A stretch of 64,000 bases of DNA from Chloroflexia bacterium (GCA_036172265.1 JASFBA010000084.1:18169-82168); one strand, 5' to 3'. Positions 9,872 to 57,781 are shown, counted from the first letter of the stretch. The notes: generated by a model not told the origin, from the sequence alone. Made by a program: numbers and translations.

Positions 9872-10002
9872 AAAAGTACATCCCGGTCACAGGAGAAACC
9901 CATCGAAGCAACGGTAGAAACCCCAGAAAGGAGGTGATGTATAGGACCGTTTGCGGCTACCGTTTCCGTCCCTTGTTGCTTAGCAGAAGAAAGGAGACAG
10001 CC

Positions 10003-40460: not shown

Positions 40461-42036
40461 CTACGACGCACTCGAAAGCGCCGCCAGGACCAGAGCCAGG
40501 GCCTGACGGCCCGCTTCGTCCAGTCCCGACGATAGGCGCTCCAGATCGCGCTCCCCTTCCAGGATACGTTGCAGGGCCCGGGCCAGCGTTGTCCTATCCT
40601 CGGCCCGGGCCATCTGCTCCAGCGCCTCCCGGATAGGCCGGGCGGCCTCCCCCCGGATGTCCCCCCGCGCCACGGCCGCCACGCCCTGGAGGAGGGGAAG
40701 CATCCGGACCACCGCCGGAGGGAGCGAGACCGCTTCCACCGCCTGCCGGGCCTGCTCCGCCAGTTGCGGGAGGCCGATTCCGTCAAAGATTTCCGCCGCC
40801 TGCAGGAGGTAGGGGCGGGCCTCCTCCGTACGGCCCAGTTCCCGCAGGACCAGGCCGAAGTTATACAGGTCGGCGGCGACATCGTAGCGACTGCCGATTT
40901 CTTCATGCCGGCGAACGGCCTCCTGGAGCAACCGCCGGGCCTCCTCATCCCGGCCCTCCTTCAGCGCCAGGCGGCTCAGGGAGGCCAGGGTATTGGCCTC
41001 CCCCAGCCGGGAGCCTACGGCCCGATAGAGCCCCAGCGCCGCCTCATAGGAGGCCAGCGCCGCATCCATTTCCTTCCGAAAACTCTGCACGTCCCCGATG
41101 GCCTTCCGGGTGTTGGCCTCTCCCCAGCCGGTCGCCTACGGCCCGATAGAGCCCCAGCGCCGCCTCGTAGGAGGCCAGCGCCGCATCGTATTCATCCAGG
41201 TAGTACAGCGTAAGCCCCAGGGAGTGGAAAATGTGGGCTCGCTCGGTCTCCTGACGCCCCTCCGTCTCCACAATGGCCAGGGCCTGTTCCAGTTCCCGCC
41301 GGGATTCCTGCCAGAGATTCTCTTGCCGGAGCAGGTCCCCCAGTTCCCGGTGGAGACGGGCCGCCAGGATAGTATGACCCGCTCCTACTCTTGCCATGTC
41401 CCCCAGGAGTTGACGGAGTAAACCCATGCGGGCCTGGCGGTCTTCCGGAGTTCCCGCAGGAATGCTCGTCTCAGCCACTTTTTGCGAAACTTTCAGCAGC
41501 CACGGGGCAAAGAGACGGAACACAAAGACCTGGCGGCGAAAGGCCCAGAAGTCCGGGGCCAACTGGTGAACCCGTCTCTCTGTGTCATAGGGGAACCATA
41601 GGACCATCGGATAGGGAAGACGGCCTAAAACTTCCCGCCGGTAGTTCAGATAGCGGGCAACGGTGTCCACCGTTTCCGGGTCAATGATCAGAAAAACCGC
41701 ATCACCTCCCACCCCTTCTTCAGAAGCCAACCGGGGCAGAAAGTCCTGAGAGGCCTGGTTGATCTTGAAAACCCGTATTCTCCAATCCGGGAGGCGCGCG
41801 GCCACTTCAGCGATCAGGCGATCGCGCAGGAGGGGGGAATCGTAAAAGGCCAGGAAGAGAGCAGGGTGCCCGCGCAGGGAACCCAGTGCGACACAAAGCC
41901 GCTCCAGTTCCTGAAAGCCTTCCTCATCCAGGGCGAGGGGTTCGGCCAGCAACCCCGTGAGCGGCACAGGCCAGGAAGGGACCTCTTCCAGGGTTGCTAC
42001 AGGAGAGATTTCACGATCGGATGAACGTCCCACCAC
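40461..42036 (-). pseudogene. TPR-repeat protein gene split by a +1 frameshift (ORFs 41044..42036 and 40461..41090), with an internal ~120-bp tandem duplication
   Basis: Removing one T in the homopolymer at ~41121 (ggcctcTcccc) joins ...AVGDRLGEANT.. to ..QSFRKEMDAALASYEA of the downstream ORF. TPR motifs occur throughout. Confidence 0.5.
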
Positions 42037-43268
42037 GAATCCTCGTTAGAGTACTCTAAAATGCTCAGGTTATGGAGAAGTTCCAGCAAAGCCAATTCTG
42101 ATTCCTCTTCTTCAGGCCGCTGCCGAACACGATGAATTTCCCGCACCCGCTTATCCCGGTGGACCATTTGTAACTGTGGGTAATGTTCGGCCCGCAGGGA
42201 ACGCTGATACTCGTTTCGGATGGTAGAAACGGCCGTCTGGGCTATAAGAAGGTCTATACTTTCTTTCCCTCTTACACGGGCCTCGTTGCAGGCCATTTGC
42301 ATCAGCGTGGTCATCTCTCGCATAACCCCGCCGCTCATCTCAATAAGGAACTCCAGCGCGTCCGGGGTAATCAACCCAAGTTCCATCCGGCGGGCGACCA
42401 TCTTCCGCATAATGCTTCGCCCTTTTTCATCAGGAGTTCCATCACGGTTCTGTATCTTGATATTGGGAAGGACAAACCAGCCGCTGAAACTTCGGGCAAC
42501 CGAACGGAACTCCGCTGTGTACAGAAGGGCGAGGGGAATGGTGTAGATGATTTTGCAGGGGAGTTGTGTCAATGTTGTGGCATGACGATAAAATAATTCC
42601 TGGGCTGTAGCGATGTCCGGTTTATCCAGGTCATCAATGGCAACCAGGACGCTCCGTATTAACTGGGTACGAACCAAACTGGCAAGCCAGGCGATATGGG
42701 TGACCAGGTCAGAAACTCTATGGGCCAGCGCTTGACGCAAATATTCCCGGGTAACCGCTTCCAGACGGAGTTTCCCTTGAGGGCCGATAAGCCCTTCAAA
42801 CCAGAGGCTCAGCAACTCAATGGGCGAGACTTTCTCCGGTCGGAGGAAGCCGACAGGCTCGCTCTGAGGCAACCAGAATCGTTCCAGCAGGCTTATTAGC
42901 CCTTCGTCCATCTGCACCCCGGCCTGGCGGGCCGCGCGGTACAGGCCGGCTTCAATCGCTATCACCAAGTCCACGTACCTCAGGTCCAGCGGGTCCAACA
43001 CGTCGGCAAGGGAGAGAGGGACAACGAGGAAGGCCTCCTGAATTTGGGGGTCCGCCAGAAGGCGATTCAGTTCGGTGGATTTACCACACCCCCGGTGTCC
43101 GGTAAACAAGATTTTGTCCGGAGAATCCGGTGCTCTGAGCAGAATTGGACGGATGCGATCCACCGGATTGGGCTCCCGGCCCACATAATATAATTCTAAC
43201 TGGGGACCGCTGAGGGGTTTCAGCGGGTCAAAGGCCAGATAGGCATCGTCCAGATTGGTGGCGATCAT
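41997..43268 (-). CDS. P-loop NTPase (AAA/Arch_ATPase-like)
   Basis: Walker A GHRGCGKST and Walker B LVAIDDLD. 423 aa, no effector domain recognised. Confidence 0.6.
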   Translation of the reverse strand: MIATNLDDAYLAFDPLKPLSGPQLELYYVGREPNPVDRIRPILLRAPDSPDKILFTGHRGCGKSTELNRLLADPQIQEAFLVVPLSLADVLDPLDLRYVDLVIAIEAGLYRAARQAGVQMDEGLISLLERFWLPQSEPVGFLRPEKVSPIELLSLWFEGLIGPQGKLRLEAVTREYLRQALAHRVSDLVTHIAWLASLVRTQLIRSVLVAIDDLDKPDIATAQELFYRHATTLTQLPCKIIYTIPLALLYTAEFRSVARSFSGWFVLPNIKIQNRDGTPDEKGRSIMRKMVARRMELGLITPDALEFLIEMSGGVMREMTTLMQMACNEARVRGKESIDLLIAQTAVSTIRNEYQRSLRAEHYPQLQMVHRDKRVREIHRVRQRPEEEESELALLELLHNLSILEYSNEDSWWDVHPIVKSLL

Positions 43269-43361
43269 CTTTCTCTCCTTTCGTTATGGGCCCGGACGAT
43301 CTCCGCCGTCAGTGGGCTGCTGAGCAGGAAGAGGATATGGGGGTGGCCTGGCGCGGGCATC

Positions 43362-43985
43362 TCATTTCTCCATTGCTTTCAGCCGTTCCTGAAGGAAGTC
43401 GTAGCCGCCCTGGGTCAGGAGGTACGCGGCCAGGGCCAGGGCTCGCTCTCTTTCCTCCCGGCTGCGCAGTTTCTCCAGGTAGGCCTCCACCTGGTCGGGG
43501 GGATGGAGAGCAGAGGCGCGGGCAAAAAGGGAGACCTGATGCTCCAGTTCCTCCACGGGGAGGCGAGTTGCCTGTTCCAGAAGGCGGATGCGGCCGGGGA
43601 GGAGGCTCTGATTGATCTGCTCCCAGCAGAAGCGCTGAAGGCGGCCGTAGAGGTCGGCCAGGGAGAGGGAGACTGCCTCCCCTATCTCCGGGTTCAGGGG
43701 CTGGAGGAGATTGATGCGGGTACGGAGGAGGGCCTGCCATCCCAGCCCCGCCGCCAGAGCCAGGAGGTAGGGGTTGGCCGCAGGAAAGGCGAACCACACC
43801 AGGGCAAAGATCGGAAGGGCGAGGGCTCCGTTGATCGCTATCAGCAGCCCGCTCCATCCACTCCGTAGCGCCCGACGAACGTCGCTCGGGAAGGCCTGGA
43901 CCACCTCAGTCAGGGCCCAGAGGCCAGCCAGGACAGCCACCAGCAGGTAGGGACCCAGTGCGTTGACCACGTCGCTGGCTGTCAT
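43362..43985 (-). CDS. hypothetical membrane protein (3-4 N-terminal TM helices + soluble helical domain)
   Basis: ORF with hydrophobic N-terminal half. Confidence 0.45.
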   Translation of the reverse strand: MTASDVVNALGPYLLVAVLAGLWALTEVVQAFPSDVRRALRSGWSGLLIAINGALALPIFALVWFAFPAANPYLLALAAGLGWQALLRTRINLLQPLNPEIGEAVSLSLADLYGRLQRFCWEQINQSLLPGRIRLLEQATRLPVEELEHQVSLFARASALHPPDQVEAYLEKLRSREERERALALAAYLLTQGGYDFLQERLKAMEK

Positions 43986-44000
43986 TGGGGCGCCCGTCCT

Positions 44001-44441
44001 TTATGCGCTGCGGATGGCGTCTCGTCCCCGCGCCGTCAGGAAAACCACATCCCACCCTCGCAGGGTCTTGATTTCCACCAATCCCTCTTGCTTCATCTCC
44101 TGCAGGACGGGGCGGATTTCGTCCGGCAACGAAAGGGTGGCGGCGGCCAGTTCGGGGAAAAGGGCCGGGCCCCGCCGATGGAGGTTTTCCAGAATCACCT
44201 GCCGAAGACGGGTCGTTTCCCGGTCCGCCGTCTCCTTGTCCCTGGTTTCCTCTTCCAATTGTCGGGCCAGGTTCGCCAGCGCCTCCTGGCTGGCCTTCAG
44301 TTTTTCCGCCTCGGGGGAATTCTCCTCTGCGCGAGATGCCAGAATACCGCTGATCCGACTCAGTTCCCGGGCGACGTCCGCCAGCAGCCGGACGGTATCC
44401 GCTATCCTTTTTGGTTCTCCGCTACCGATCACGCCCATCAT
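44001..44441 (-). CDS. hypothetical coiled-coil protein with possible C-terminal winged-helix
   Basis: 146 aa. Charged coiled-coil centre, then C-terminal LQEMKQEGLVEIKTLRGWDVVFLTARGRDAI. Confidence 0.4.
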   Translation of the reverse strand: MMGVIGSGEPKRIADTVRLLADVARELSRISGILASRAEENSPEAEKLKASQEALANLARQLEEETRDKETADRETTRLRQVILENLHRRGPALFPELAAATLSLPDEIRPVLQEMKQEGLVEIKTLRGWDVVFLTARGRDAIRSA

Positions 44442-44707
44442 TGCCTCCAGAACCAGAAGCCGCTGGAATTCCAGTCAGAATCCCCCTGGCCCCCTTTCCG
44501 TCTGCGGGAGAGAAGAGAGCCGTCCCTGTTTCTCTCCCTCCCCTTTGGAGAGAAGGGGATTGGGGGGATGAAGGGGTCAATCACCGCCTGTTTCCGGGAC
44601 GGTGAATCCAGGCGCACGCGACTCATCTCTATTTTACACCGCCAGAAAAGAGTTGACAACTTCCTCCGGAACGTGGCTGCACTTCCAGAATGACCGGCAC
44701 GTCCGGA

Positions 44708-45469
44708 TTAATGGGCCAGAAGGACATCTCCGGCCCGAATTCGGTGCAGGTTTCCATCGGGAGTACGGAGCAGAAGCGCGCCGTCTTCGTCTACCCCTTC
44801 GGCGATTCCCCGCAGTTCCCGTTCCGCTGTGACCACCCGCACGGGTCGGCCCAGGGTGGCCAGACGGGTGGCCCATTCGGCCCCGGGGCGTTCCCCGGTC
44901 CTCCACCGTTCACAGCGGTCCTTCACCCCGTTCAGGAGGCGATCCAGCAGAGCATCCCGGTCAGTGGTCTGGCCTGTCTCGGCCAGAATACTGGTGGCAT
45001 CGGGGGCCAGGTCGGGCAGAGCCTCTGCCGGGACGTTCACGTTGATTCCTATGCCGACGATCACGAACTCCAGCCGGTTGCCGGAGAAGCCGGTTTCGGC
45101 CAGGAGTCCTCCCAGTTTCCGCCAGGATTCCCCCCGGGCGATGATGAGGTCATTGGGCCACTTGAGGGAGACCGGGAGGCCAGCGGTGGCCGCTACGGCG
45201 TCGGCGGCGGCCAGGGCGCAGATCATAATCAGGTCTGTGGCAGGAGCAAAGAGTCCCACACCGGTGGCAGGCCGAAAGAGGAGGGAGCAGAGCAGGGAGG
45301 TGCCGGGTGGCGCCAGCCAGCGCCTCCCCAGGCGGCCCCGTCCGGCGGTCTGGTAGTCGGCGGTGACCACTGTTCCCTCCGGTGCCCCTCGCGCGGCCAG
45401 GTCCCGGGCCACGTCGTTGGTAGAGGTTGTGGAGGGCAGATGGATGCGGGTAAAGGTAATATGGTTCAT
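44708..45469 (-). CDS. birA: biotin--[acetyl-CoA-carboxylase] ligase (group I, no DNA-binding domain)
   Basis: Start at ATG 45469. TADYQTAGRGRLGRRW and KWPNDL motifs. Confidence 0.8.
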   Translation of the reverse strand: MNHITFTRIHLPSTTSTNDVARDLAARGAPEGTVVTADYQTAGRGRLGRRWLAPPGTSLLCSLLFRPATGVGLFAPATDLIMICALAAADAVAATAGLPVSLKWPNDLIIARGESWRKLGGLLAETGFSGNRLEFVIVGIGINVNVPAEALPDLAPDATSILAETGQTTDRDALLDRLLNGVKDRCERWRTGERPGAEWATRLATLGRPVRVVTAERELRGIAEGVDEDGALLLRTPDGNLHRIRAGDVLLAH

Positions 45470-45590
45470 GGCTGGAAAAGCAACCGCGCAGAAAATGATA
45501 TACCGCCGGGCTATTTCCGTCAAGTGCTTGACTTTCCAAAGGATTGGGTTAAAATGCATCCCACCGCCGTTCCCTTGTTCTGGAGGACGG

Positions 45591-47819
45591 ATGAAACGCT
45601 CTTCCTTACCGGTCATCTTGTTGATAGTGGTATTTGTTGGACTTGGTCTGCTTTATGGGATAACCGTTCCCCCCTTTGAGAATCTGGATGAGATAGAGCA
45701 TTTCGGAGTTATTCGCTACATTGCTGAAACGGGTCGCCTCCCCGTCCATGGCACTCCTGAGGCAGAGGTGTACCACTACCGGCAGGAGGCCTCCCAGCCC
45801 CCGCTGTACCATCTGCTCTCCGCTGGACTGGTGCGCCTCCTGGGGCTGTGGGCCGGGGATATGGGGATGTATATCCGGTTTAACCCTCGCGTAGCCTGCG
45901 GCCCTAATGCTCCCTTCCTCTACGATAATCGGGCCATTTTCTACCATAACCCTCATCGGGAGCGCTTCCCCTGGCAAGGCACCCTCCTGATGCTTCACGT
46001 CCTGCGCATTGGGTGCACCTTTCTACAGGCCTTTACCGTCCTCGGCACCTGGGCGCTGGCAAGGCGCATCTTCCCCACCCGTCCGGGAATCGCTCCGCTG
46101 GCCACCGCGATCGTGGCCTTTAACCCCCAGTTCCTCTTCGTCGCCAGCGGCGTGAATAACGACAATTGGGTAACTCCCCTGGCGACATGGGGCCTCTACC
46201 TGCTGGTTTGCCTCTGGCAGGAAGGCCTCTCGGCCCAACGTACATTCGCGCTGGGTATTCTGATCGGACTGGCGGGGCTCTCTAAACTCAGCGGTTGGCT
46301 TTTACTCCCTCTTGCTCTGCCGGTTATTTTGACCGGGGCCTATCGTCTCAAACGAACTGCTTCCCGCTCGTGGATGGTTTCCCTTATCACTCATTGGTCA
46401 TTGGTCATTGCATTGCCCCTTGCCCTCTCCGGCTGGTGGTTTTGGCGCAACTGGTATCTCTATGGTGACCCCACTGCGCTGGCCCCTATGCTGAAACTGG
46501 TGGGCGTGCGGGGGTCGCCCATTTACCCCTGGACAGAGGCAAGTCTGGTATTTCGCTCCTTCTGGGGACAAATTCCCTGTTCCTTCTTCCCTGCCGGTTT
46601 TTATGTCCCCTACATCCTGATTACCGGTATCGGCATTTTCGGCCTGTTCGGGGGCCGGCGACAATTCCTCCCTCCAGAACGGAGGGCTGCTGTCCTCCTC
46701 GTGGCATGGTTCCTGCTGGTACTGGTCGGCTGGGCACGGTGGGATATGATCACTCCTGCACCGGGTGGCCGTCTTCTCTTTCCTGCTCTTCCCGCCGTTG
46801 GCCTTCTCCTCGCATTGGGTATTCACTCGCCGATCCTTCAGCCCTCTGGTATTCCGTCACCCATCCGGTCGTCGGTTGTTCCGTTGTTGGTTGTTCTTCT
46901 GTTCATTCTGGCCTTCTGGACGGTGGCCGTCATTTTGCCCGCCTTCTACGCTCCACCGCCCCGATATGCCAACCCTAACGCTGTGCGTCCCCAGCATCCC
47001 ACCCAGGTGCACTTCGGTGACTCCATCCGCCTCCTGGGTTACGACCTGCACGCCCGACCTGAGAAAGGTTTTCTGGACGTGACCCTTTACTGGCAGGCTG
47101 TTGTGCCGATGACGGACGATTCCGTCATGGCCCTGCAACTGGTCTCCCCAATCCCCGGCGACGACACTCTGCGCTGGACCTACGACTCCTGGCCCGGGCG
47201 CGGAAATTACCCCACCTCCGCCTGGAAGCCCGGCGAGGTGCTTCAGGACCGCTACCGGTTCTATCTACCGGCGGCGAATTTCCCCACCCAGGCCTGGGAC
47301 CTGCAAGTAGTTCTGTACCATCCGGAGAAGGGAGCCCTCCCTGTCTCGGTTGACGGGACATCAGCCGGAAGACGATGGCCTCTCGGACGGCTGCGGCTGC
47401 CGGGGACGACGCCGGCCTGCCCCGAATCCGACCGTCTGACAGCGGGGGTCCATCTGGGCGAGAGTGTGGCGTTAACCCATGCCGGTGTGATGACCGATGA
47501 GACGGGGACGCGGGTCACCCTGTGCTGGCAGAGTCTTGCTCCATTGGCAGAGGATTACCACGTTTTCGTCCACCTGTACGACCCCTCCGACACCCTGCTG
47601 GCGGCAGGGGACGGGCCGCCGATGGGGGGCGCGTTCCCTACCTCCTTCTGGAAGCCGGGGGATGTGGTTCTGGACATTCATCCCCTGCCTCCGCTGGTGG
47701 AAGGGGGCCGCGTTGCTGTGGGGCTCTACCGGCTGCAGGACGGCGTCCGCCTGCCGGTGACCATCGGGGGCACACCCGTCCCGAACGCGGCCATTCCCAT
47801 CTGGCCGGAGCGGCCATGA
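45591..47819 (+). CDS. PMT/ArnT-like (GT39-type, GT-C fold) membrane glycosyltransferase paralog A, with duplicated C-terminal soluble domain
   Basis: N-terminal loop LDEIEHFG (DExxH), multi-TM core, and two C-terminal repeats of (F/L)GDxI.LLGYDL...LYWQA...FPTSFWKPGDV. Confidence 0.65.
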   Translation: MKRSSLPVILLIVVFVGLGLLYGITVPPFENLDEIEHFGVIRYIAETGRLPVHGTPEAEVYHYRQEASQPPLYHLLSAGLVRLLGLWAGDMGMYIRFNPRVACGPNAPFLYDNRAIFYHNPHRERFPWQGTLLMLHVLRIGCTFLQAFTVLGTWALARRIFPTRPGIAPLATAIVAFNPQFLFVASGVNNDNWVTPLATWGLYLLVCLWQEGLSAQRTFALGILIGLAGLSKLSGWLLLPLALPVILTGAYRLKRTASRSWMVSLITHWSLVIALPLALSGWWFWRNWYLYGDPTALAPMLKLVGVRGSPIYPWTEASLVFRSFWGQIPCSFFPAGFYVPYILITGIGIFGLFGGRRQFLPPERRAAVLLVAWFLLVLVGWARWDMITPAPGGRLLFPALPAVGLLLALGIHSPILQPSGIPSPIRSSVVPLLVVLLFILAFWTVAVILPAFYAPPPRYANPNAVRPQHPTQVHFGDSIRLLGYDLHARPEKGFLDVTLYWQAVVPMTDDSVMALQLVSPIPGDDTLRWTYDSWPGRGNYPTSAWKPGEVLQDRYRFYLPAANFPTQAWDLQVVLYHPEKGALPVSVDGTSAGRRWPLGRLRLPGTTPACPESDRLTAGVHLGESVALTHAGVMTDETGTRVTLCWQSLAPLAEDYHVFVHLYDPSDTLLAAGDGPPMGGAFPTSFWKPGDVVLDIHPLPPLVEGGRVAVGLYRLQDGVRLPVTIGGTPVPNAAIPIWPERP

Positions 47820-50155
47820 AACCCGCTCATTTCTACTGGTTGGCTATCTCTCTGCTCCTGATTTTGTGGGCGCTGACTCTCTATGCGGCCCGCTCTACTT
47901 CTATGGTCATTGATGAAGGGATGCACTTGGCCAGCGGCTACAGTATCCTCCGGACCGGGGATTACCGCCTGGTAGAGGAACATCCGCCGTTGGTCAAACT
48001 GTGGGCTTCTCTTCCCCTATTTTTTGTGCCCGATATCTCTGACCCCAGAGGGCTTGCAGCGTGGGAAGAGGCTCTTCTGGATCCGACCGATAGCCTCTCT
48101 TTGCTGGCGGTGGCCCGGGAGACGATCACTTCATATCGGCCGATAGAGCGGCTGGTCTTTCCAGCGCGGGCAATGGTGGCGTTGCTTGGTCTTGTTCTGG
48201 GAGCCGTTGTCTGCCGATGGGCGGCAGACCTGGGAGGGGCGTGGGCTGGGGTCTTTGCTCTTTTTCTGGTGGCGCTGGACCCTAACATCCTGGCTCACGC
48301 GTCGGTGGCAGGAACTGACCTGGGAGCGGCTGTGACAGCGGCACTGGCTCTTTTCCTCTTCGCCCGTTGGCTCCGCCAACCAACGGTTACCAAATGGCTG
48401 GCAGCGGGCCTGGCATTGGGGTTGGCCCTGGGTACTAAAACGTCGGCCATCCTTCTGGTCCCGACGCTCTTCCTTTTAGGGTTGGGGGTTCGCCCCCGGT
48501 ATATCATTGCTCTGTTGGCGCTTTTCGGCCTGGCTGGCCTGACTCTATGGGCTCTCTATAGATTTGAATTCGGTCCAATTCCTGGCACCGGAGTTCTTGT
48601 TCCGGCCCCCAGCCATGCCATCCCTTCTCTCCGTCTGCGCCGCCATATAGCCGACGGCCACCCATCCTTTCTGTTGGGGGAGAACCGCACCCACGGCTGG
48701 TGGTACTACTTCCCCGTCGCTTTTGCTCTGAAGACTCCTTTGCCCACTCAACTGTTTCTCGCCCTTTCACTGGCTTCGGCTGCCCTCACTCTCCTCCGCC
48801 GTCCCGGGGAGATAGCCCGTCTTGTCGGCCGATGGGGTCCGGTGGCCCTCTTCCCCTTCCTCTATGGGATTAGCACGCTGGCAAGCCCCCTGAACATCGG
48901 TTATCGCCATTTGCTCCCGATGCTCCCATGTCTGTTTGTCCTGGCTGGTTACGAATTACGCAATATGCAATATGCAGTACGCCCATACTTCTTCCGTATC
49001 CCGTTTTTACTCCTCCTGGCCTGGCTGGCTCTTGGCACGCTGCGAGTTGCGCCCCACTATCTGGCCTATTTCCACGAACTGGCAGGCGGTCCGGATAACG
49101 GCTGGCGCTACCTGGCCGATTCCAACACCGATTGGGGTCAAGGCTACAAAGACCTGGCCCGTTTCCAGCGGGAGCGCGGGCTGGGAACAGTATATCTTTC
49201 GGCCTTTCTTCTCATCAACGATCCAGCCATCTACGGCGTGCGGTATGAACCGCTGACTCCGATGTGGGGGACAACCCCAGCGATTTTTCCTTCCCGATTC
49301 AACCCATCACCAGGCGATTATGTTATCAGTGCTACCACATTGGACGGAATCCCGCTGGTAGACCCGGAGATGTATGACTGGTTCCGTAAGCGGGAACCGG
49401 ATGCCCGGATTGCCCACGTGCTCTTCTACTACCATGTTCCGCCTCGGGAGCCGGCCCCGGAGTGGGTGGCTCAGTGTGCCGCGCCGATGGCTCCGCTGAC
49501 GCCAGAGGCCATCGCGGAGGGCTTTGGCCGGGATGACCTGCGGCAGGTGGATTTTGACTGCACTCAGGCCTGGCTGTATCCGGACGGAGGGATGTCTGCC
49601 GGATGGTATGTCCTGCATCGGGATTCATCTCTGGAGACGTGGTTTATTCGGAGTCATCTGGCTTCCTCTCGCCTTTCCTATGAGCAGAGACGGCGAGGAG
49701 CATTACCTCCCTTTCGCATCTACGAGTGGCCGGCCGGTACGCCTGTCCTGAGGCCTGCGACCCTGTTGCTTCCTGAAGGAGCATCCTCGTCTGTGCTTTT
49801 AGATGGTCCACTGATGTTTCTGGGAGCCCGCGCTTTATCCGAAGCCGATGGCCTGACCATAGAGACCTGGTGGCAGGTCACCGAAGGGCCGATTACCCGT
49901 CCGCTTTCCATTATAGGGCATCTCCTGAATGGGGCGGGCGAACTGATCGGGCAGGATGACGGCCTGGGAGTTTCGCCGGTACTCTGGCAGCCAAGGGACA
50001 TCATTGTCCAGCGCCACCGGTTTCCCCTCCCCCCTGCCGGTGAAGAACTCTGGCTGCGCACCGGGGCCTACTGGCTGGATACAATGGAGCGGTGGCCCGT
50101 TGCGGATTTTCCTCAGAGGGATATAATGCTGATACCGCTGAGGAAAGGAAAATAG
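47815..50155 (+). CDS. PMT/ArnT-like (GT39-type) membrane glycosyltransferase paralog B
   Basis: ATGA overlap with paralog A. VIDEGMHLASGY loop, multi-TM core, and a C-terminal domain ending WLDTMERW that is shared with paralogs C and D. Confidence 0.65.
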
Positions 50156-50157
50156 CG

Positions 50158-51300
50158 ATGGCGCGTGTCTCAGCCTTTACCAGTCTCGGTCTGTCTGCCC
50201 TGATTCTAATGATGGCGATTGCCGCAGTTGCTGGGGCGGAGCCTCCCCCGCCGGACACTAACCGTTTCTTCCCGACCCCTCCCCCGATGGGAGCAGAAGG
50301 TTGGCTGCCTGCTCCGCCTGTAACAGCGATGAGTGGCTCCAATCTGTTGGTGAACGGCAGCTTTGACGACCCTGCCTACCCTTTCTACTGGCGGTATCCC
50401 AACCACTTCGTCGCAGGGGGGTGGATCCGCTGGTGGATTCACGGGACCGTCCTGCCGGAATACGACGACGCCCGCACCCAGCGGCCGTACTATGATGGCG
50501 GCCACGCTCAGGTCTATTTCAAGTGGGGAGCCACGTATGAAGCCGGCATCTACCAGGTCGTCTCCGGCCTCACTCCCTGCACGCCCTACCGGTTCACGAT
50601 GTGGGCCCGCAACCACTCGCTGGAGGGTGTCTTGCCCCATGCCCGCATTGGGCTGGACCCGGAGGGGACTCAGTTGACGCCCAGCGATGACGACTGCGCG
50701 GTCAAAACCGGCCTGCCCCCCAAGACGGTCTGGTCCCGCGAGCAGACGGTTCTCTTCACCTGGGAGGAACTTGCGGTAGATGCAGAACCCTTGGGAACTC
50801 GGTTGACCGCCATCCTTTATGCCCACCCGGAGCCTCCCCCGGACGGGCGAACCTACTATTTTGACACCATCTGGGATGCCGGGCGGCTGATCACCGGTAC
50901 CTATCCAAATGGCAGGTTGCCGGTACCCGCTTCCTGGACGCCTTCAGGGTTTATCACCAATGTGGTTACCTCCACTGTGCTGAACAGCCTGGTGATAGAG
51001 TGGGATACTTGGGCTCCCGCCTCCACCCAGGTCTGGTACGACGTCATCAGTCCAACTGCGCCCATCTCTTTCACCGGGGCCTTTACAGTGTACCTCCCTC
51101 TAGTAACGAAGGCTCCCTACTATTCCTATGCTACGGCACCGGATATGACACCTGTGAACCACCATCGGGTGGCCATTGGTGGCCTGCAGAACGGTCAGAT
51201 CGTTCGTTTCGTTGCCCTCTCCCGCCGACTATATGATGGTTCATGTGTTACCGAGGTGTCAGCACCGATGGAGGTGATAGTCAGCGGGATTACCCCCTGA
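50158..51300 (+). CDS. secreted protein with CBM-like and FN3-like domains (paralog of 53685..54803)
   Basis: Signal peptide MARVSAFTSLGLSALILMMAIAAVAGA, LVNGSFDD CBM-like start, internal YLPLVTK motif. An out-of-frame YAYLPLVIKASGP lies immediately after the stop. Confidence 0.6.
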   Translation: MARVSAFTSLGLSALILMMAIAAVAGAEPPPPDTNRFFPTPPPMGAEGWLPAPPVTAMSGSNLLVNGSFDDPAYPFYWRYPNHFVAGGWIRWWIHGTVLPEYDDARTQRPYYDGGHAQVYFKWGATYEAGIYQVVSGLTPCTPYRFTMWARNHSLEGVLPHARIGLDPEGTQLTPSDDDCAVKTGLPPKTVWSREQTVLFTWEELAVDAEPLGTRLTAILYAHPEPPPDGRTYYFDTIWDAGRLITGTYPNGRLPVPASWTPSGFITNVVTSTVLNSLVIEWDTWAPASTQVWYDVISPTAPISFTGAFTVYLPLVTKAPYYSYATAPDMTPVNHHRVAIGGLQNGQIVRFVALSRRLYDGSCVTEVSAPMEVIVSGITP

Positions 51301-51340
51301 ACTATGCCTATCTGCCCCTGGTGATCAAAGCGAGCGGCCC

Positions 51341-53704
51341 GTGAGCAATCGTATGAAGATATGGGCCCTGTTCCTGCCATACACCCTGTTGGCTTGCTTT
51401 TTCGCGCAAGTCATCCTGGCTGGGCCGCACCTTTCCCTCACCGCCGACGAGCCTGTCCATATGGCCCAAGGCTATGTCTACTGGACGCGATGGGACTTCC
51501 GCTTCGCCTGGGCCATCGCCCAACCGCCCCTGCCCGATGCGCTGGCAGGCATTGGCCTGCTCCTTCAGCCTGGCCCGAATGTGGAGGAACTGGAAGGATG
51601 GGTGGACGGAGACCATTCCCACTTCGTCTCCGCCTTCCTTAACTGGTATGGGCCCGGTGCGGCCCTGGAAGCGGCCACTTTCGTTTCCCGCTTCCCGATC
51701 ACCCTGGTGGCGCTGATCGGCGCGGCTTTCGTCTACCGCTGGGCCCGGGAGCGGTTCGGACGGCAATGGGGATGGCTGGTCCTTTTTCTCTTTACCTTTG
51801 ACCCCAACTTCCTGGCCCACTCCGGCCTGGCGACCACTGATATTCTCCTGGCTGTCTGGGGATTCGTCGGCGTTTATGCCGCAACCCGATGGGCCGCCAC
51901 CCATTCCCGGAAATGGGGGCTTCTGAGCGGCGTCGCTCTGGGGCTGGCGCTGGGGTCCAAAACCTCCGGCTTTTTCCCCCTGGGGATTGTCGGCCTGATA
52001 GGGTTCACCTGGGCCCTGGAGGAGTTCCGCCGCCAGAGGAGAATCGGGGTATGGCTCCGGTGGGCCGGACGGCTGGCCGGCCTGCTGGGGCTTGCGGCCC
52101 TGATCCTCTGGGCCCTGTACGGTTTTGAACTCCGACCTCATCCATTCGCCACCCACCTGTTGCTGTGGCGGATGCTGCGGAGGCACATGGCCGAAGGACA
52201 TGCCGCCTTCCTGATGGGTCAGGTCGCGCATCACGGCTGGTGGTACTACTATCCGGTGGCCTTTCTCCTGAAAACCCCACTCCCCACGCTGGTTCTGTTG
52301 GCAGCGGCTCTGGCTCCACCGGGCTATGCTCTCCGGCGCTGGTGGCAGGATCGGGACCTCTGGCTGTATCCCCTGCTCTATGGGTTCGCAACATTGTTCA
52401 GCACCATCGCGATCGGCTACCGTTACCTGCTGCCAGCCTTGCCTTTTCTGTTTGTTCTCGCGGGCCGCGTCCTGCGGAGTACGGAGTACGGATTACGGAA
52501 TGCGTACCCCGTATTGCGTATTCCGTTATTGGTTTGGCTGGTTGCTGGCACCTTAAGGGTTGCTCCGAACTATCTGACCTTCTTCAACGAACTGGCTGGT
52601 GGGCCTTACCAGGGGCACCGGTATCTGGTGGATTCCAATCTGGATTGGGGGCAGTCCTTGAAGGCACTGAGGGAATGGCTGCGTAGCCAGGAGGATGTGG
52701 GTGTACCTTTTATCAGTTTCTACACGTATGCCAGCCCGGGCCTGTACCATATCCTTTATCATCCAATTCCGCCGGCCCCTTACACTCCCTTGACCCTTCC
52801 CGCCCGCTTTGACCCGGCGCCGGGCCTCTACGTGATCGGTGCGACAACCCTTCAGGGAGTTATGCTGAGCGACCCGGATGCCTACGACTGGTTCCGCCAC
52901 CGCGAGCCGATTGCCCGCCCAGGAATTGCTCTCTTTGTTTATCGGGTGTCTCCCCACGACTCTCCACCTACCTGGCTGGCCCAATGCACGGTGCCCGTCG
53001 CACCGCTGACCCTGGAGGCTGCTGTAGAGGGGTTCGGCCGCGATGACCTGCGGCTGGCCTACTTTGACTGCACCTCTGGCTGGCTCTACCCGACTGGCGG
53101 CGAGGACCCTGGCTGGTTCGCGCTGTTCCGCCAGACCGCTCTTTCCGATGACCCGTTTATCCGTCGGCAACTCTCCTCGGCGCGCCTCTCGTTTGAACAA
53201 CGACGACCCGGCACTCTGCCTCCCTTTGTCATCTATGAAGCGCCGGTCGGAAAGATAGGCCCGTGCTTCACCCCCGAATCCTCCGTCCAGGTGGGCACTC
53301 TGGTTTTCCTGGGAGAAGATTCTCCCGGTCCTCTTCCCGTTCGGCCAGGCACAACAGTGGAGATAGAGACCTGGTGGCGAGTGAAGGCAGTCCCCGCCCG
53401 CCCACTCTCCATTATGATGCACCTGGTCGGCCCGGAGGACCAGCCGGTCATCGTCAGCGATGGGCTGGCGGTGCCGGTGGACCAGTGGCGGCCCGGCGAC
53501 ATCATCGTCCAACGCCACCGGCTCTCCATCCCGGCGGATGCTCCCTCCGGCGAGTATCAGCCCTTCACTGGCGTTTACTGGCTGGATACAATGGAGCGGT
53601 GGTCGGTAGAGGTAGACGGGAAGCCGGCAGGGGATCGGGTCCCCCTGCCGGCCGTTCCAGTCTCCGGTGAACGCCACGGGACGGCTACGGGGTCGGCACC
53701 GTGA
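51341..53704 (+). CDS. PMT/ArnT-like (GT39-type) membrane glycosyltransferase paralog C
   Basis: LTADEPVHMAQGY loop, multi-TM core, C-terminal domain ending WLDTMERW. Start at GTG 51341 or ATG 51353. Confidence 0.65.
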   Translation: MSNRMKIWALFLPYTLLACFFAQVILAGPHLSLTADEPVHMAQGYVYWTRWDFRFAWAIAQPPLPDALAGIGLLLQPGPNVEELEGWVDGDHSHFVSAFLNWYGPGAALEAATFVSRFPITLVALIGAAFVYRWARERFGRQWGWLVLFLFTFDPNFLAHSGLATTDILLAVWGFVGVYAATRWAATHSRKWGLLSGVALGLALGSKTSGFFPLGIVGLIGFTWALEEFRRQRRIGVWLRWAGRLAGLLGLAALILWALYGFELRPHPFATHLLLWRMLRRHMAEGHAAFLMGQVAHHGWWYYYPVAFLLKTPLPTLVLLAAALAPPGYALRRWWQDRDLWLYPLLYGFATLFSTIAIGYRYLLPALPFLFVLAGRVLRSTEYGLRNAYPVLRIPLLVWLVAGTLRVAPNYLTFFNELAGGPYQGHRYLVDSNLDWGQSLKALREWLRSQEDVGVPFISFYTYASPGLYHILYHPIPPAPYTPLTLPARFDPAPGLYVIGATTLQGVMLSDPDAYDWFRHREPIARPGIALFVYRVSPHDSPPTWLAQCTVPVAPLTLEAAVEGFGRDDLRLAYFDCTSGWLYPTGGEDPGWFALFRQTALSDDPFIRRQLSSARLSFEQRRPGTLPPFVIYEAPVGKIGPCFTPESSVQVGTLVFLGEDSPGPLPVRPGTTVEIETWWRVKAVPARPLSIMMHLVGPEDQPVIVSDGLAVPVDQWRPGDIIVQRHRLSIPADAPSGEYQPFTGVYWLDTMERWSVEVDGKPAGDRVPLPAVPVSGERHGTATGSAP

Positions 53705-54803
53705 ACTGCCGAGCCTCCGACCGCCAGGTGACGCATTGACTGCCGGAGAGGCCCCGGGAGACGGCGATGAACTCGTACGTGCCACCCGGAACCAGCCCGG
53801 TCAGGACGGCCTGATGGCTGGTGGTGGGCGTCTTATTCAGCGGAGTGTACTGCCATCCGATCTGCCGCAGGACGATGGGGAGATAGACTTTATAGGGGTA
53901 CTCCGGCGGAGTGGGCCCGACGGGACCGGAGACCAGGCGATAGTATACCTGCCCCAGCGCCGCACCGGTTGTTGTCCAAGTCACCGTGGTTGTTGCTCCG
54001 GCGGTGATGACGGTCAGGTTGCTGATGCCGGATGGGGTGGGCAAATTGTTCGGGTCATGGATCATCGGCGGTGTGGCATCCCAGAAAGAGGCACTGTCCC
54101 AGAGGATGCGATGGGAACGGCCGCCGCTGGCATCGGCGTAGGTGAAAACCGTGATTTTGGTGCTCAAGGCCTCTGCCGTCACCGTCAACGGGCCATAGGC
54201 CCATTGGTATTTCTGGACAGGCCCCCAGATTGTAGAGGCAGGGAAGGAGACGTGGACCGCCGGGTCGGTGTACGAATTGGGATGCCAGCCCACCCGGTCA
54301 ATCCCGACCTGCAGCGCATAGAGCACATCGCCGCTTCCTTCCGGTCGGGACTGGGCATATATCTGGAAGCCGTAGACCAGACAGGGCGTAGCGTTGTAGA
54401 TGGGCTGGTAGATGCCGGCCAGGAATTTGCCTTCGCCGTAGGTGCGCATCTGCACGGCCTCCACGTTCAGCACATAGGTCCCCTCCGGGTCTGGTTCCAC
54501 GATGTCTGTCCCGTCCAGGAACCATAACCGCCAGTCCTGCCGGATGCTATCCGGGATATTATTGTTGACATTATTATCATCGTCCGGAAGCCAGGCACCT
54601 GAAGGGTATGTGCTCTGATACCGGAGGTGAAACTCGTACCAGTCGTGGTTATCAAATCCGGGGTTGTGGAGCGAGGCCGTCCCTGCAGCGATGACATTTG
54701 CCGGTGGAGTGGGGGTGTCCGCCTGGGAGATCCCGGAAACCAGAAGCATCGCCATAGCGGCCAGGATGGCTGGCCCGGCGAAAATGAGGAAATGTTTTCT
54801 CAT
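53685..54803 (-). CDS. secreted protein with CBM-like and FN3-like domains (paralog of 50158..51300)
   Basis: Signal peptide, SD TAGGAGG, KVYLPIVLR motif before a C-terminal FN3-like domain. Confidence 0.6.
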   Translation of the reverse strand: MRKHFLIFAGPAILAAMAMLLVSGISQADTPTPPANVIAAGTASLHNPGFDNHDWYEFHLRYQSTYPSGAWLPDDDNNVNNNIPDSIRQDWRLWFLDGTDIVEPDPEGTYVLNVEAVQMRTYGEGKFLAGIYQPIYNATPCLVYGFQIYAQSRPEGSGDVLYALQVGIDRVGWHPNSYTDPAVHVSFPASTIWGPVQKYQWAYGPLTVTAEALSTKITVFTYADASGGRSHRILWDSASFWDATPPMIHDPNNLPTPSGISNLTVITAGATTTVTWTTTGAALGQVYYRLVSGPVGPTPPEYPYKVYLPIVLRQIGWQYTPLNKTPTTSHQAVLTGLVPGGTYEFIAVSRGLSGSQCVTWRSEARQFTVPTP

Positions 54804-54927
54804 CGTTGACCTCCTATAGTGAGTGGGCTATCCCTTCCCTGGAACCGAGCAGGTCCCGAATATAAGATAAGTGTACCAGAAATCATAGGGGCGTCAAGAT
54901 TGACGCGGACGCGTTGGAGAACACTGG

Positions 54928-57216
54928 ATGCGAAACCATAACGTTTTGCTTCTGTTTCCCCTTATCGCGGTGGTTCTTTTCGCTCAATTAATGCTTCACT
55001 CCTGCCACGCCTCCCTCACCTTTGACGAAGGCCCCCACATCGCGGCGGGATATGCTTACCTCCGCACCGGCGACCTGCGGCTACAACCGGTCCACATCCA
55101 TCCGCCGCTGGCCAATATCCTGGCCGCCGCGCCGCTCCTGCTTCAGCCCGATCTCCCCGACCCCCGCCGGATTGACGGCTGGGAGATCGCCAGCCTCTCC
55201 GCTGTCACCGACGGGGTGGTCTGGCAGTACCCCTATCCGGCCCGGATGGCACTGGTAACCCGATTCCCCATCATCGGGATGACCCTCCTGCTGGCCGCCG
55301 TCGTCGGCCGCTGGGCCACTGACCTCTGGGGGCCGCGCGGTGGCCTGCTGGCCCTTTCCCTGCTGGCCTTTGACCCCCATATCATTGCTCACGGCTCGCT
55401 GGTGACTACCGATATGGCGGTGACCCTCTGGGGGACGGCCGCGCTCTTCCTGGCTTCCCGCGCTCTCCGCCACCCCCGTGCCGGGTCCGCAGCGGGCGCC
55501 GGCATCGCCCTGGGGCTGGCCCTGGCCTCCAAAGTCTCTGCCCTTTCCCTTGTCCCGGCCCTGCTGGTTCTGGCCCTGCTGGCCCCCGTCCGCCTCCGCC
55601 ATCGGCTGACTGCCATCCCGGGCGGGCTGGCCCTGGCTGCGCTGGCCCTCTGGGCCGTCTACAGGTTTGAGGTTCGCCCTGTCGCTGGCTTCCCGCTCCC
55701 CCTGCCCGCCGCCACTCACCTGGAGATTTACCGTTCCCTCCAGGAGCACTACCGCCAGGGCCACCCGGCCTTCCTGATGGGCCGGAATAGCCAGCACGGT
55801 TGGTGGTACTATTTCCCCGTCGCCTTTGCCCTGAAGACCCCGCTACCTACCCTCTTGCTGGCGCTGGCCGGCCTTATTGGGAGACCCGCCCTAAGGGCTT
55901 GTCTGATGGGCCAAAACGGCACTCCACCTCGTTTCGTGCTTGACTACGAATGGCGCCGCTGGGCGCCTCTCACGGTTTTCCCGCTGATCTACCTGGCCTC
56001 CACTCCCTTCAGCAGCGTCAACATTGGCTACCGCCACCTCCTGCCGGTTCTGCCCTTTCTGTTCATCCTCGCAGGCCGCATCCCACGGAGTACGGAGTGC
56101 GGATTACGGAATGTGTACTCCGTATTGCATATTCCGTTATTGGTTTGGCTGGTTGCTGGCACTTTAAGGGTTGCTCCCAACTATCTGGCCTTCTTCAACG
56201 AACTGGCGGGCGGACCGGCGGGGGGATACCGCTACCTGGTGGACTCCAACCTGGATTGGGGGCAGAACCTCTGGCAACTGCGGGATTGGATGCGGAAAAA
56301 CGGCGTGGGGCGGGTCTTCTACGCCCATTACAGCCCCGCGCGGCCGGAAGTCTATGGGGTTTCTGTGGACTTTTTACCGCCGGACTGGCGCGCCATTCCC
56401 TTCACACCGCTGGACCCGGCCCCCGGGGTCTATGCCATCGGCGCGACAGTCCTGCAGGGTATCTACACGCCGGACGTCAACACGTACGTCTGGTTCCGGG
56501 CCCGCTCGCCCTGGGCCCGGCTGGGGTACGCGCTCTTTCTGTACCGGGTGGAGCCCCGCCCCGCGCCCCGCTGGGCCGTCCTCTGCACCGACGCGGCCAC
56601 CGCGCTCTCGCCCGACGCCCTGCGCACTGGCCTGGGCCGTCCCGACCTCCGGGTGGCCTATGTGGACTGTTCTCAGACGTGGGTATTCCCCGCTCCCGGG
56701 CCGCCCGGCGTCCTGGTCCTGCCGCCGGAGGCCGGGCCCCCGCCCGGCGCGATGCTGGACGTCCCGGCCCGCCGGGCCGACGGCCGTCCCCTATACAACC
56801 TCTACTGGCTGGAGACGGCCCCGGCGTCGGAGCACCCGCTGACGGCTACCCTAGATGGCCCGCTGGATTTTGTGGGGCACTCCGTGTTCCGGACCGGTGG
56901 AACGGTGGAGTTGTGGACGTTCTGGCGGGTCAAAGAGATACCGGCCCGGCCTCTATCGCTGATGGGTCACCTTCTGGGGCCAGATGGGATCCCCGTGGCA
57001 GTGGCGGATGGGATGGGATTCCCGCCGGAATTCTGGCAGCCTGGCGACCTCATCGTCCAGCAGCAGCGGTTCTCCATCCCGGCCGGTGCGCCGTCGGGGG
57101 AGTACACCCTGGCTACCGGCGCCTACTGGCTGGATACGATGGAGCGATGGGAGGTCACTGTTGACGGGAAACCGGCGGGGGACCAGATTTTCTTATCCGC
57201 TATCCTCTGGGAATGA
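54928..57216 (+). CDS. PMT/ArnT-like (GT39-type) membrane glycosyltransferase paralog D
   Basis: LTFDEGPHIAAGY loop. Shares a ~160-bp near-identical tract with paralog C. C-terminus ends WLDTMERW. Confidence 0.65.
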   Translation: MRNHNVLLLFPLIAVVLFAQLMLHSCHASLTFDEGPHIAAGYAYLRTGDLRLQPVHIHPPLANILAAAPLLLQPDLPDPRRIDGWEIASLSAVTDGVVWQYPYPARMALVTRFPIIGMTLLLAAVVGRWATDLWGPRGGLLALSLLAFDPHIIAHGSLVTTDMAVTLWGTAALFLASRALRHPRAGSAAGAGIALGLALASKVSALSLVPALLVLALLAPVRLRHRLTAIPGGLALAALALWAVYRFEVRPVAGFPLPLPAATHLEIYRSLQEHYRQGHPAFLMGRNSQHGWWYYFPVAFALKTPLPTLLLALAGLIGRPALRACLMGQNGTPPRFVLDYEWRRWAPLTVFPLIYLASTPFSSVNIGYRHLLPVLPFLFILAGRIPRSTECGLRNVYSVLHIPLLVWLVAGTLRVAPNYLAFFNELAGGPAGGYRYLVDSNLDWGQNLWQLRDWMRKNGVGRVFYAHYSPARPEVYGVSVDFLPPDWRAIPFTPLDPAPGVYAIGATVLQGIYTPDVNTYVWFRARSPWARLGYALFLYRVEPRPAPRWAVLCTDAATALSPDALRTGLGRPDLRVAYVDCSQTWVFPAPGPPGVLVLPPEAGPPPGAMLDVPARRADGRPLYNLYWLETAPASEHPLTATLDGPLDFVGHSVFRTGGTVELWTFWRVKEIPARPLSLMGHLLGPDGIPVAVADGMGFPPEFWQPGDLIVQQQRFSIPAGAPSGEYTLATGAYWLDTMERWEVTVDGKPAGDQIFLSAILWE

Positions 57217-57232: not shown

Positions 57233-57781
57233 TCACCCGCCCTTCAGGTTCAGCGGAATCCCCGCCACCATCAGGATCACCTGGTCGGCCCGGGCGGCCA
57301 GCCATTGATGGACCCGCCCCAGCGCGTCCCGGTAGACCCGTCCCATCGGGTACGGGGGGACCAATCCCATCCCCACTTCATTGGAGACGACGATGAGAGA
57401 AACCCCTCGCGCGGCGCAGACTTCCAGCACGGCCTCCAATTCGTCCACAACTCGCGCTTCCAGCCGGTCTTCCGTCACCCCATCGCCTTCGTCCATCAGC
57501 AGATTGGAGACCAGCAGGGTCAGGCAATCCATCAGCACGACTTCGCCCCCGGCGACCGCCGCCTCCAGTGCCTGTCCGATATGCATCGGGGCCTCCAGCG
57601 TGCGCCAGTGGGACGGGCGCGCGGCCCGATGGCGGGTAATCCGTTCGGCCATCTCAGCATCCCCTGTGGTCGCCGTCGCGACGTAGAGGACCGGCCGACC
57701 GGATTCCACTGCCAGCCGCTGGGCATATGCGCTTTTCCCGCTTCGGGCACCGCCCAGAATCAGAGTCACCCGGGCTCTCAT
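57233..57781 (-). CDS. cobU: bifunctional adenosylcobinamide kinase / adenosylcobinamide-phosphate guanylyltransferase
   Basis: MRARVTLILGGARSGKSAYAQ P-loop. 182 aa. Confidence 0.85.
   Translation of the reverse strand: MRARVTLILGGARSGKSAYAQRLAVESGRPVLYVATATTGDAEMAERITRHRAARPSHWRTLEAPMHIGQALEAAVAGGEVVLMDCLTLLVSNLLMDEGDGVTEDRLEARVVDELEAVLEVCAARGVSLIVVSNEVGMGLVPPYPMGRVYRDALGRVHQWLAARADQVILMVAGIPLNLKGG

Follow-up and report, generated by a model that had tools for sequence, protein, structure and literature searches.

A conserved array of GT-C glycosyltransferase genes interleaved with two genes for secreted CBM- and FN3-like proteins in a Chloroflexia bacterium

The six-gene array and its glycosyltransferases

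An array of six genes was analysed in a 64,000-nucleotide (nt) stretch of DNA from a Chloroflexia bacterium (GCA_036172265.1, JASFBA010000084.1:18169-82168), which is called the window here and whose positions are counted from its first base. Four of the genes, designated A to D, encode membrane glycosyltransferases of the GT-C fold, and the other two, designated S1 and S2, encode smaller secreted proteins with a carbohydrate-binding module (CBM)-like and a fibronectin type III (FN3)-like domain. This block is very probably a cell-surface glycosylation module conserved across filamentous Thermoflexales and Anaerolineae. All six genes had been listed in a preliminary description of the sequence, and each was found where it had been placed.

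Gene A (45591-47819, plus strand; 742 amino acids, aa) encodes a GT-C membrane glycosyltransferase that is a distant member of the PMT_2 clan, and it is preceded by GGAGGA 4 nt upstream of its ATG. It is followed by gene B (47816-50155, plus strand; 779 aa), encoding a PMT_2 GT-C glycosyltransferase. The start and stop codons of the two genes overlap as an ATGA (47816-47819, plus strand), which can be read from the sequence and had been described before, indicating translational coupling. Gene S1 (50158-51300, plus strand; 380 aa; CBM-like plus FN3-like) starts 2 nt past the stop codon of B. Gene C (51341-53704, plus strand; 787 aa) encodes a PMT/PMT_2 GT-C glycosyltransferase; an alternative ATG at 51353, yielding a protein of 783 aa, is the start used in an identical database protein. 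Gene S2 (53685-54803; 372 aa; CBM4/22-like jelly roll plus FN3-like) lies on the minus strand and is convergent with C, the 3' ends of the two genes overlapping by 20 nt. Gene D (54928-57216, plus strand; 762 aa) encodes another PMT_2/PMT GT-C glycosyltransferase. The locus had been described as a tandem, interleaved array, and S1 and S2 do lie between GT-C genes, but the antisense orientation of S2 breaks the tandem order. The 124-bp divergent spacer between S2 and D (54804-54927) is a candidate bidirectional promoter region, and related loci keep this divergent orientation. A sigma-70-like match on its minus strand (54897-54870) is a consensus match only; promoter-like matches scarcely exceeded the number expected after shuffling (6 versus 3.2) and were given no weight.

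The description of A to D as four GT-C paralogs held for B, C and D, which are full-length, close paralogs with 42-46% identity (blastp E-values of 1e-141 to 1e-180): B is 43% identical to C and 42% identical to D, and C and D share 46% identity. A is a distant relative only. By BLAST, A shared with the other three enzymes just a C-terminal module of ~110 aa and a weak match in the core. When alignments of the A family (50 sequences) and of the B/C/D family (52 sequences) were compared, they were homologous over 553 columns, spanning the membrane core and the C-terminal module (hhalign 99.5%, E = 4e-22). The PF13231 (PMT_2) gathering cutoff of 26.1 bits was passed by B (30.3 bits), C (36.9) and D (37.7). 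For PF02366 (PMT; cutoff 22.7 bits), C scored 44.2 and D a marginal 23.6, and no match was obtained for B or A. A itself had no direct match in Pfam, and 31 of the 50 members of its family matched PF13231 (best E = 6e-14). Homologs of these enzymes are annotated in their source records as 'glycosyltransferase family 39 protein', 'ArnT family glycosyltransferase' or 'phospholipid carrier-dependent glycosyltransferase'.

In a sequence search of the PDB with the B/C/D profile, yeast Pmt1 and Pmt2 were the sole matches, and these were weak (E ~2e-3); the alignment sets the invariant Asp-Glu and PPL of the family on D92-E93 and HPPL of Pmt2. PDB searches with the single sequences of C and A, and with the A-family profile, returned no match. 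A match of C to the NCBIfam model for Agl23 (29 bits against a cutoff of 126) was far below threshold and was disregarded. Placement of these proteins in an unrelated GT-C family, an outcome that had been named in advance, was not found, with PF13231 passed by B, C and D and ArnT as the best fold match.

The DExxH motif that had been noted in the first loop is located directly after the first transmembrane segment, within residues 33-40, in all four enzymes (LDEIEH in A, IDEGMH in B, ADEPVH in C and FDEGPH in D). Its Asp and Glu are invariant in the 52 sequences of the B/C/D family and in the 50 sequences of the A family, and its His is invariant in the A family only. In each of A to D, the first outside loop carries a catalytic-type Asp-Glu pair, and the C-terminal domain is large and lies outside the membrane. 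A domain closed by WLDTMERW is common to B (residue 753), C (747) and D (734), as had been reported. The internal duplication reported for A was also recovered (residues 473-590 against 620-728; 34% identity, E = 4e-13), and the C-terminus of A consists of two tandem beta-sandwich repeats, at about residues 473-590 and 620-740.

Among the four enzymes, the structure of C was modelled, with AlphaFold2 and the 52-sequence alignment, giving a confident model (mean predicted local distance difference test score, pLDDT, 91.9; predicted template modelling score 0.88). The invariant columns of C include D36 and E37, the PPL motif and K207, and a conserved GWWYYYP hairpin lies in an outside loop. In the model, the large C-terminal domain expected for these enzymes is outside (residues ~410-787) and comprises an alpha/beta part, with the invariant DSNLDWGQ (431-438) and a conserved Cys549/Cys577 pair, followed by a beta-sandwich (~650-775) with the WLDTMERW motif. 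In a Foldseek search of the PDB, ArnT ranked first (5f15/5ezm, E = 6e-8), and further matches with a probability of at least 0.97 were AglB, Pmt4, ALG12, ALG9, STT3, Pmt1-Pmt2 and EmbA/B/C. Matches of the terminal beta-sandwich included NPC2, RbmA and the carbohydrate-binding domains of the O-antigen transporter Wzt (2r5o, 6o14). Protein O-mannosyltransferases (PMTs) carry their large outside domain in loop 5 and lack a C-terminal domain, an architecture unlike that of the model of C, in which the outside domain is C-terminal. The profiles place the enzymes in the PMT/ArnT clan, but the earlier label 'GT39-type' is too narrow because of this C-terminal outside domain of ~380 aa, the lack of a loop-5 domain and the ArnT-like best fold match. 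A to D are predicted to be PMT/ArnT-clan GT-C glycosyltransferases of ArnT/STT3/Emb-like architecture rather than canonical GT39 PMTs.

A 300-nt gene-conversion tract with 79% identity was also identified between C (52370-52669, plus strand) and D (55981-56280). In its core, nucleotide identity was 0.86-0.89 and third-position identity 0.78-0.86, compared with 0.62-0.68 and 0.44-0.46 for the same columns in the orthologous gene pair of a syntenic relative (locus L001). Terminator-like hairpins inside C and D were rejected as regulatory elements, being coding sequence of this tract.

Secreted proteins S1 and S2 and the YLP motif

S1 and S2 had been described as secreted paralogs with a CBM-like N-terminal and an FN3-like C-terminal domain, and BLAST, structure prediction for S2 and fold searches were all in agreement with this. 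The two proteins share 29% identity over 351 aa (E = 1e-22 to 1e-26), and each has one N-terminal hydrophobic segment (residues 6-24 in S1). The AlphaFold2 model of S2 had a mean pLDDT of 88.7, with lower confidence at the signal peptide, the linker and one loop. By Foldseek, the N-terminal domain of S2 matched the jelly rolls of CBM22, CBM4, CBM16 and CBM61, and the C-terminal domain matched FN3/Ig modules. At the sequence level, the S-family profile reached FN3 domains of titin, and the Pfam matches, to Pur_ac_phosph_N, were below threshold. S1 and S2 are accordingly predicted to be secreted CBM-like plus FN3-like proteins. The S family is narrow, with 122 clusters at 90% identity; among 150 listed representatives at 50% identity, a few dozen were matches of the full-length type and the others were generic FN3 repeats.

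The less well-modelled loop of the S2 FN3 domain (residues 293-322) is an exposed, Pro/Thr-rich excursion, predicted as coil with a pLDDT of 73-80, and carries KVYLPIVLRQ (YLPIV at 53871-53885). The corresponding element in S1 is FTVYLPLVTK (YLPLV at 51091-51105). The loop is variable save for the motif [VI]-Y-L-P-[LI]-[VI]. In an alignment of 55 S sequences, Leu308 and Pro309 were invariant and Tyr307 was at least 90% conserved. The motif was present in 111 of 118 full-length S2 homologs, with near-variants in the other seven, and the conservation of its residues among these homologs was 100% for Pro, 94% for Leu and 92% for Tyr. The 12 residues preceding the motif are 25% Pro and 32% Ser plus Thr, compared with 7% and 18% elsewhere in S proteins. 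An explanation of the YLP strand as an ordinary core beta-strand of the FN3 domain was rejected, as the model predicts coil there with a confidence below that of the rest of the domain.

The motif resembles that of two NCBIfam models for a 'YLP-box putative sorting motif-containing protein', NF050076 (cutoff 15 bits) and NF053834 (cutoff 10). The loop fragment of S1 passed both (17.8 and 17.3 bits), and full-length S1 scored 14.1 and 13.8 bits, the latter above the NF053834 cutoff. The S2 loop scored 14.7 bits for NF050076, 0.3 bits short of the cutoff. Both sites are internal rather than C-terminal, the S motif being located ~65 residues from the C-terminus and retained in nearly every S protein. 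Literature searches found no publication on the YLP-box, on its processing enzyme or on sorting signals of Chloroflexota. In the window, a secreted subtilase of 1501 aa (Peptidase_S8 with a PKD domain; 9874-14379, plus strand) also ends in a C-terminal YLP-box (VYKIYLPLVFKGYTAP), which scored 15.3 bits for NF053834 (cutoff 10) and lies 31 kb from the array.

S1-type proteins canonically have a second YLP-box at the C-terminus. Orthologs of S1 end in RVYLPLVARGR (L001 and L005), HVYLPLVMR (L002) or LNQVYLPTVLKEDSDP (L004), and the C-terminus of the L001 ortholog passed both NF050076 (19.2 versus 15 bits) and NF053834 (16.7 versus 10). A remnant of such a tail was found at 51293-51344 (plus strand). 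Here, a run of five C residues (51293-51297) is directly followed by the in-frame TGA stop of S1 (51298-51300), and the next 14 codons of the +1 frame encode an out-of-frame YLP-box, NYAYLPLVIKASGP, up to a stop at 51342-51344. The encoded S1 lacks the C-terminal YLP-box because of this one-base frameshift, and one extra C would restore an ortholog-like end; the restored tail gave no match to NF050076 or NF053834. The frameshift may be an assembly error, a real one-base frameshift or a phase-variable site.

The array in related genomes

The window proteins are nearest to those of Thermoflexus, Thermoflexales, Thermoflexia and Anaerolineae metagenome-assembled genomes, all of the Chloroflexota. 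Exact-sequence look-ups with D and with the cluster representative 100% identical to C returned no contig, and the gene context was taken from a closely related contig and from a genome scan. The full order BirA-A-B-S1-C-S2(antisense)-D-CobU is retained on that contig, which has 80% identity to C. A scan with the S profile, using one genome per species and mapping the profiles on six reading frames, gave 38 loci. In ~30 of these, S2 is flanked on both sides by GT-C genes, as [GT-C, minus] [S2, plus] [C-type GT-C, minus], and this arrangement holds down to 42% S2 identity (42-85% protein identity across loci). Up to eight GT-C genes were present per locus, and S1-type genes recur on the strand of the enzymes. 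Many clusters of C homologs and of S2 homologs also sit on contigs of identical size. The co-conservation of the secreted proteins with the enzymes, which had been proposed as a check on a link between them, was therefore found, with S2 sandwiched in ~30 of 38 loci and S1-type genes recurring. The exceptions were mostly short contigs, or S-like proteins of ~960 aa ending in a YLP-box. The latter (L011, 9917-12817; L032, 3077-5998; L033, 7339-10200) had no flanking GT-C genes, and their C-terminal extension had no Pfam match.

All 38 loci are from Chloroflexota save one in a bin labelled 'uncultured Syntrophobacteraceae' (L018, CAZIEW010000111.1), which has a typical S2/GT-C array; the label is probably a binning error, because every other locus is from Chloroflexota. 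In two unrelated metagenome contigs, genes for a VTC-domain protein and a DUF4956 protein adjoin the arrays (L041, 205-3154; L042, 1790-9348, with CotH too in L042).

Two kinds of additional gene occur within the related arrays. In nine loci (L017, L018, L021, L024, L025, L029, L031, L038 and L040; e.g. L040, 13693-15562), a wecB gene and a family 2 glycosyltransferase (GT2) gene are located between an S1-type gene and a C-type GT-C gene. The wecB product is a non-hydrolysing UDP-GlcNAc 2-epimerase, which passes the WecB equivalog TIGR00236 (320 bits versus 210). The best NCBIfam matches of the GT2 (240-255 aa) were PpgS, ArnC, dolichyl-phosphate hexose transferase, PgfS and AglJ, all below the equivalog cutoffs. 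Together, the two genes supply the donor part of a classical lipid-monophosphate-sugar/GT-C pathway. The presence of wecB and a PpgS/ArnC-like GT2 in relatives points to an N-acetylhexosamine (HexNAc) donor, possibly N-acetylmannosamine (ManNAc), rather than mannose. In seven loci of more distant Anaerolineae (L013, L017, L024, L029, L036, L038 and L041; e.g. L038, 5993-7330, minus strand), the arrays contain genes for proteins of ~450 aa with an FGE-sulfatase fold, which end in a YLP-box (GLYG.LGQT.R.YLPLV.RR).

In the window, the array is flanked by a biotin-protein ligase gene (birA; 44708-45616, minus strand) and, on the other side, by cobU (57233-57781, minus strand), the first gene of a cobalamin operon. 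The rest of the window carries housekeeping genes (pyrimidine and purine synthesis, MutS2, FBPase, MurT, peptidases and a sensor kinase). Upstream of birA, three open reading frames (41997-44441, minus strand; 423, 207 and 146 aa) had no Pfam match and are unlike the genes at the equivalent position in the syntenic relative L001. The GC content of the region 44001-57000 is 0.60-0.63, compared with 0.66-0.68 in its flanks and ~65% for the window, and the AT skew is strongly negative, reaching -0.27. This skew probably reflects the T-rich codons of membrane proteins. Horizontal transfer of the array was not indicated, since the synteny with birA and the cob genes is conserved in a relative.

Predicted function of the array

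The earlier proposal of a locus dedicated to protein or cell-envelope glycosylation is supported by the family placement of the enzymes and by their co-conservation with the secreted proteins. The best reading, to which we give a probability of roughly 0.45, is that of a dedicated protein glycosylation system comparable to the Pgf system of Streptococcus mutans, with the S proteins as predicted acceptors. The wecB epimerase and the PpgS/ArnC-like GT2 would make a carrier-linked sugar in many relatives, and the donor would be a lipid-linked HexNAc, possibly ManNAc; in the source genome, the counterparts of wecB and the GT2 would lie outside the window. What the GT-C enzymes recognise and glycosylate would be the Pro/Thr-rich YLP loop and, in S1-type proteins, also the YLP-box at the C-terminus. 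The several GT-C paralogs might act as hetero-oligomers, as the coupling of A and B may suggest, or might add successive or different sugars.

The S proteins are favoured as acceptors because the linkage is close and singles out one small protein family, and because their conserved surface loop has the Pro/Thr-rich make-up typical of bacterial O-glycosylation sites. The GWWYYYP hairpin of C also argues for this, being in the loop equivalent to that of Mycobacterium tuberculosis PMT, which picks Pro-rich Ser/Thr sites via an outside-loop hairpin and an aromatic cradle (PMC12331936). The Pgf cluster is a precedent, as it encodes the acceptor adhesins (Cnm, CnaB and CbpA) together with a GT2 (PgfS), an epimerase (PgfE) and GT-C enzymes (PgfM1 and PgfM2) (bioRxiv 10.1101/2024.05.05.592596). 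The related loci likewise bring together a GT2 that would make the lipid-linked sugar, an epimerase, several GT-C enzymes whose catalytic residues face outward and secreted surface proteins; the donor is likely a HexNAc, and the acceptors, here predicted ones, have Ser/Thr-rich segments. The GT-C enzymes of Pgf, however, belong to the YfhO family rather than to PMT_2, and its epimerase is a 4-epimerase, whereas that of the relatives is WecB. Long disordered Ser/Thr repeats and LPXTG anchors characterise the Pgf acceptors, whereas the S proteins have a single short Pro/Thr loop, within an FN3 domain, that ends in YLP[LI]V. The present arrays also have four to eight GT-C paralogs with large C-terminal domains, and the locus in the window has neither a GT2 nor an epimerase gene.

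Among other GT-C systems, ArnT (GT83), which transfers Ara4N from undecaprenyl phosphate to lipid A, gave the best structural match to C and belongs to the PMT_2 clan; its first outside loop contains acidic residues, and it ends in a periplasmic domain. The sequence identity is only 13%, however, the C-terminal domain of C (~380 aa) has an extra beta-sandwich, and the flanks of the array in the window (birA and cobalamin genes) provide no arn operon context. Chloroflexota are not known to make lipid A. The GT39 PMTs (yeast Pmt1, Pmt2 and Pmt4, and M. tuberculosis PMT) provided the sole PDB sequence matches (Pmt1/Pmt2) and the PF02366 matches of C and D; they share the DE and PPL motifs of loop 1, and their heterodimerising paralogs are a precedent for the coupling of A and B. 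They differ in having a loop-5 MIR domain and in lacking the large C-terminal outside domain; B and A are below the PF02366 threshold, and the donor genes of related loci point to HexNAc instead of mannose. Three-component extracytoplasmic systems (Gtr, GacI/L, CsbB/YfhO, PpgS/Rv3779 and GT136) combine a GT2 or PRPP-type synthase, a flippase and a GT-C enzyme. In them, a small GT2 makes a lipid-monophosphate sugar and a GT-C enzyme acts outside the membrane, as is proposed here, but these have one GT-C enzyme instead of several paralogs and lack the obligate secreted CBM-FN3 partner genes. As to the NCBIfam YLP-box, one or both cutoffs are reached by the loop of S1 and by the C-terminal ends of S1 orthologs and of the S8 protease, but the motif of the S family differs in being internal to an FN3 loop and not C-terminal.

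Several observations weigh against a system dedicated to the S proteins. The window has no GT2 (by tblastn), epimerase or flippase gene; no flippase turned up in the window or in the related loci, and no search aimed at flippases was made in either. Thr is present two residues before the motif Tyr in only ~60% of S-family members (with Lys in most others), and the Tyr is replaced by Phe in ~8%, so that no hydroxyl residue is strictly invariant. The GT-C family comprises more than 1700 clusters compared with the 122 of the S family, and most GT-C relatives therefore work without S proteins. ArnT, the best structural match of C, is a lipid-modifying enzyme. The beta-sandwich of the enzymes (Wzt carbohydrate-binding-domain-like) and the jelly roll of the S proteins (CBM-like) are usually glycan-binding folds, and a polysaccharide acceptor consequently fits at least as well.

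The main alternative, somewhat less likely, is that the array synthesises or decorates an envelope glycan. Each GT-C paralog would take a sugar from a polyprenyl-phosphate donor and attach it to a polysaccharide of the cell wall or sheath, which the terminal beta-sandwich of the enzyme would hold. The S proteins, and the FGE-like proteins of other arrays, would bind that glycan as lectin-like accessories at the surface, and the YLP-box would act as a sorting or retention signal instead of a glycosylation site; analogues would be Emb/Aft, PpgS-Rv3779, GacI-GacL and GT136. The tandem GT-C paralogs, up to eight per locus, the likeness of the C beta-sandwich to the Wzt domains 2r5o and 6o14 and that of the S N-terminal domain to CBM22, CBM4, CBM16 and CBM61 are all consistent with it. 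So is the YLP-box on the unrelated S8 protease 31 kb away, as a general sorting tag would predict. PpgS, whose product modifies a mycobacterial cell-wall glycan, is also the best NCBIfam match of the GT2. Moreover, GT136, EmbC and AftD are GT-C enzymes with a C-terminal CBM-type beta-sandwich that binds the glycan acceptor (PMC11127046). An envelope-glycan function leaves unexplained, however, the internal YLP motif of the FN3 loop, ~65 residues from the C-terminus, and the Pro/Thr richness of that loop, and known glycan-building GT-C clusters are without an obligate antisense secreted-protein gene.

It is unlikely, by comparison, that the YLP-box is a recognition tag of these GT-C enzymes, at C-termini or in the S FN3 loop, rather than a classical sorting signal, with the enzymes glycosylating adjacent Pro/Thr/Tyr residues or coupling the protein to envelope glycan. 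If this were true, the enzymes would be the missing 'sorting enzymes' of a Chloroflexota-specific display of surface proteins, and this would be a case of sequon-directed O-glycosylation by a bacterial GT-C enzyme. We consider it rather doubtful that the S proteins serve the GT-C enzymes as subunits or specificity adaptors without being substrates, docking by the YLP loop on the outside domains of the enzymes and presenting or selecting another acceptor. The strict conservation of S2 adjacency and orientation with two GT-C genes, the tight coupling of B and S1 (2 nt from stop to start) and the occurrence of a conserved short linear motif in a variable loop, typical of a docking peptide, would suit such adaptors, but the signal peptides of the S proteins look cleavable, these proteins lack a membrane anchor, and most members of the GT-C family have no S partner. 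Chance adjacency of genes with no common function might be suggested by the opposite strand of S2 and by the flanking birA and cob operon, which are unrelated housekeeping genes, but is effectively refuted by synteny: ~30 of the 38 species-level genomes keep the microsynteny, with proteins that are 42-85% identical, and S1-type genes, GT2/wecB genes and genes for YLP-box FGE-like proteins recur within the same arrays.

The enzyme family and the general logic of the pathway are already known. The array with its antisense S2, the double YLP of S1, the display of a YLP motif on a loop and the association of the YLP-box with PMT_2 GT-C arrays appear to be undescribed. Genomes of Chloroflexota carry very many PMT_2/'family 39' GT-C genes, for which no report of a tested function was found in the literature, and the envelope chemistry of filamentous Anaerolineae and Thermoflexales is poorly known. 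The locus provides a compact, conserved unit, with defined enzymes, a probable donor pathway in relatives and two small secreted proteins with a sharply conserved, exposed motif. Should the S proteins prove to be the acceptors, the array would constitute a GT-C system dedicated to protein glycosylation whose recognition motif can be identified, and it would give a first functional handle on the YLP-box, for which nothing but an unpublished NCBIfam model exists at present. With a glycan as the acceptor, the locus would instead mark the genes for an unknown envelope polysaccharide and for the proteins that bind it.

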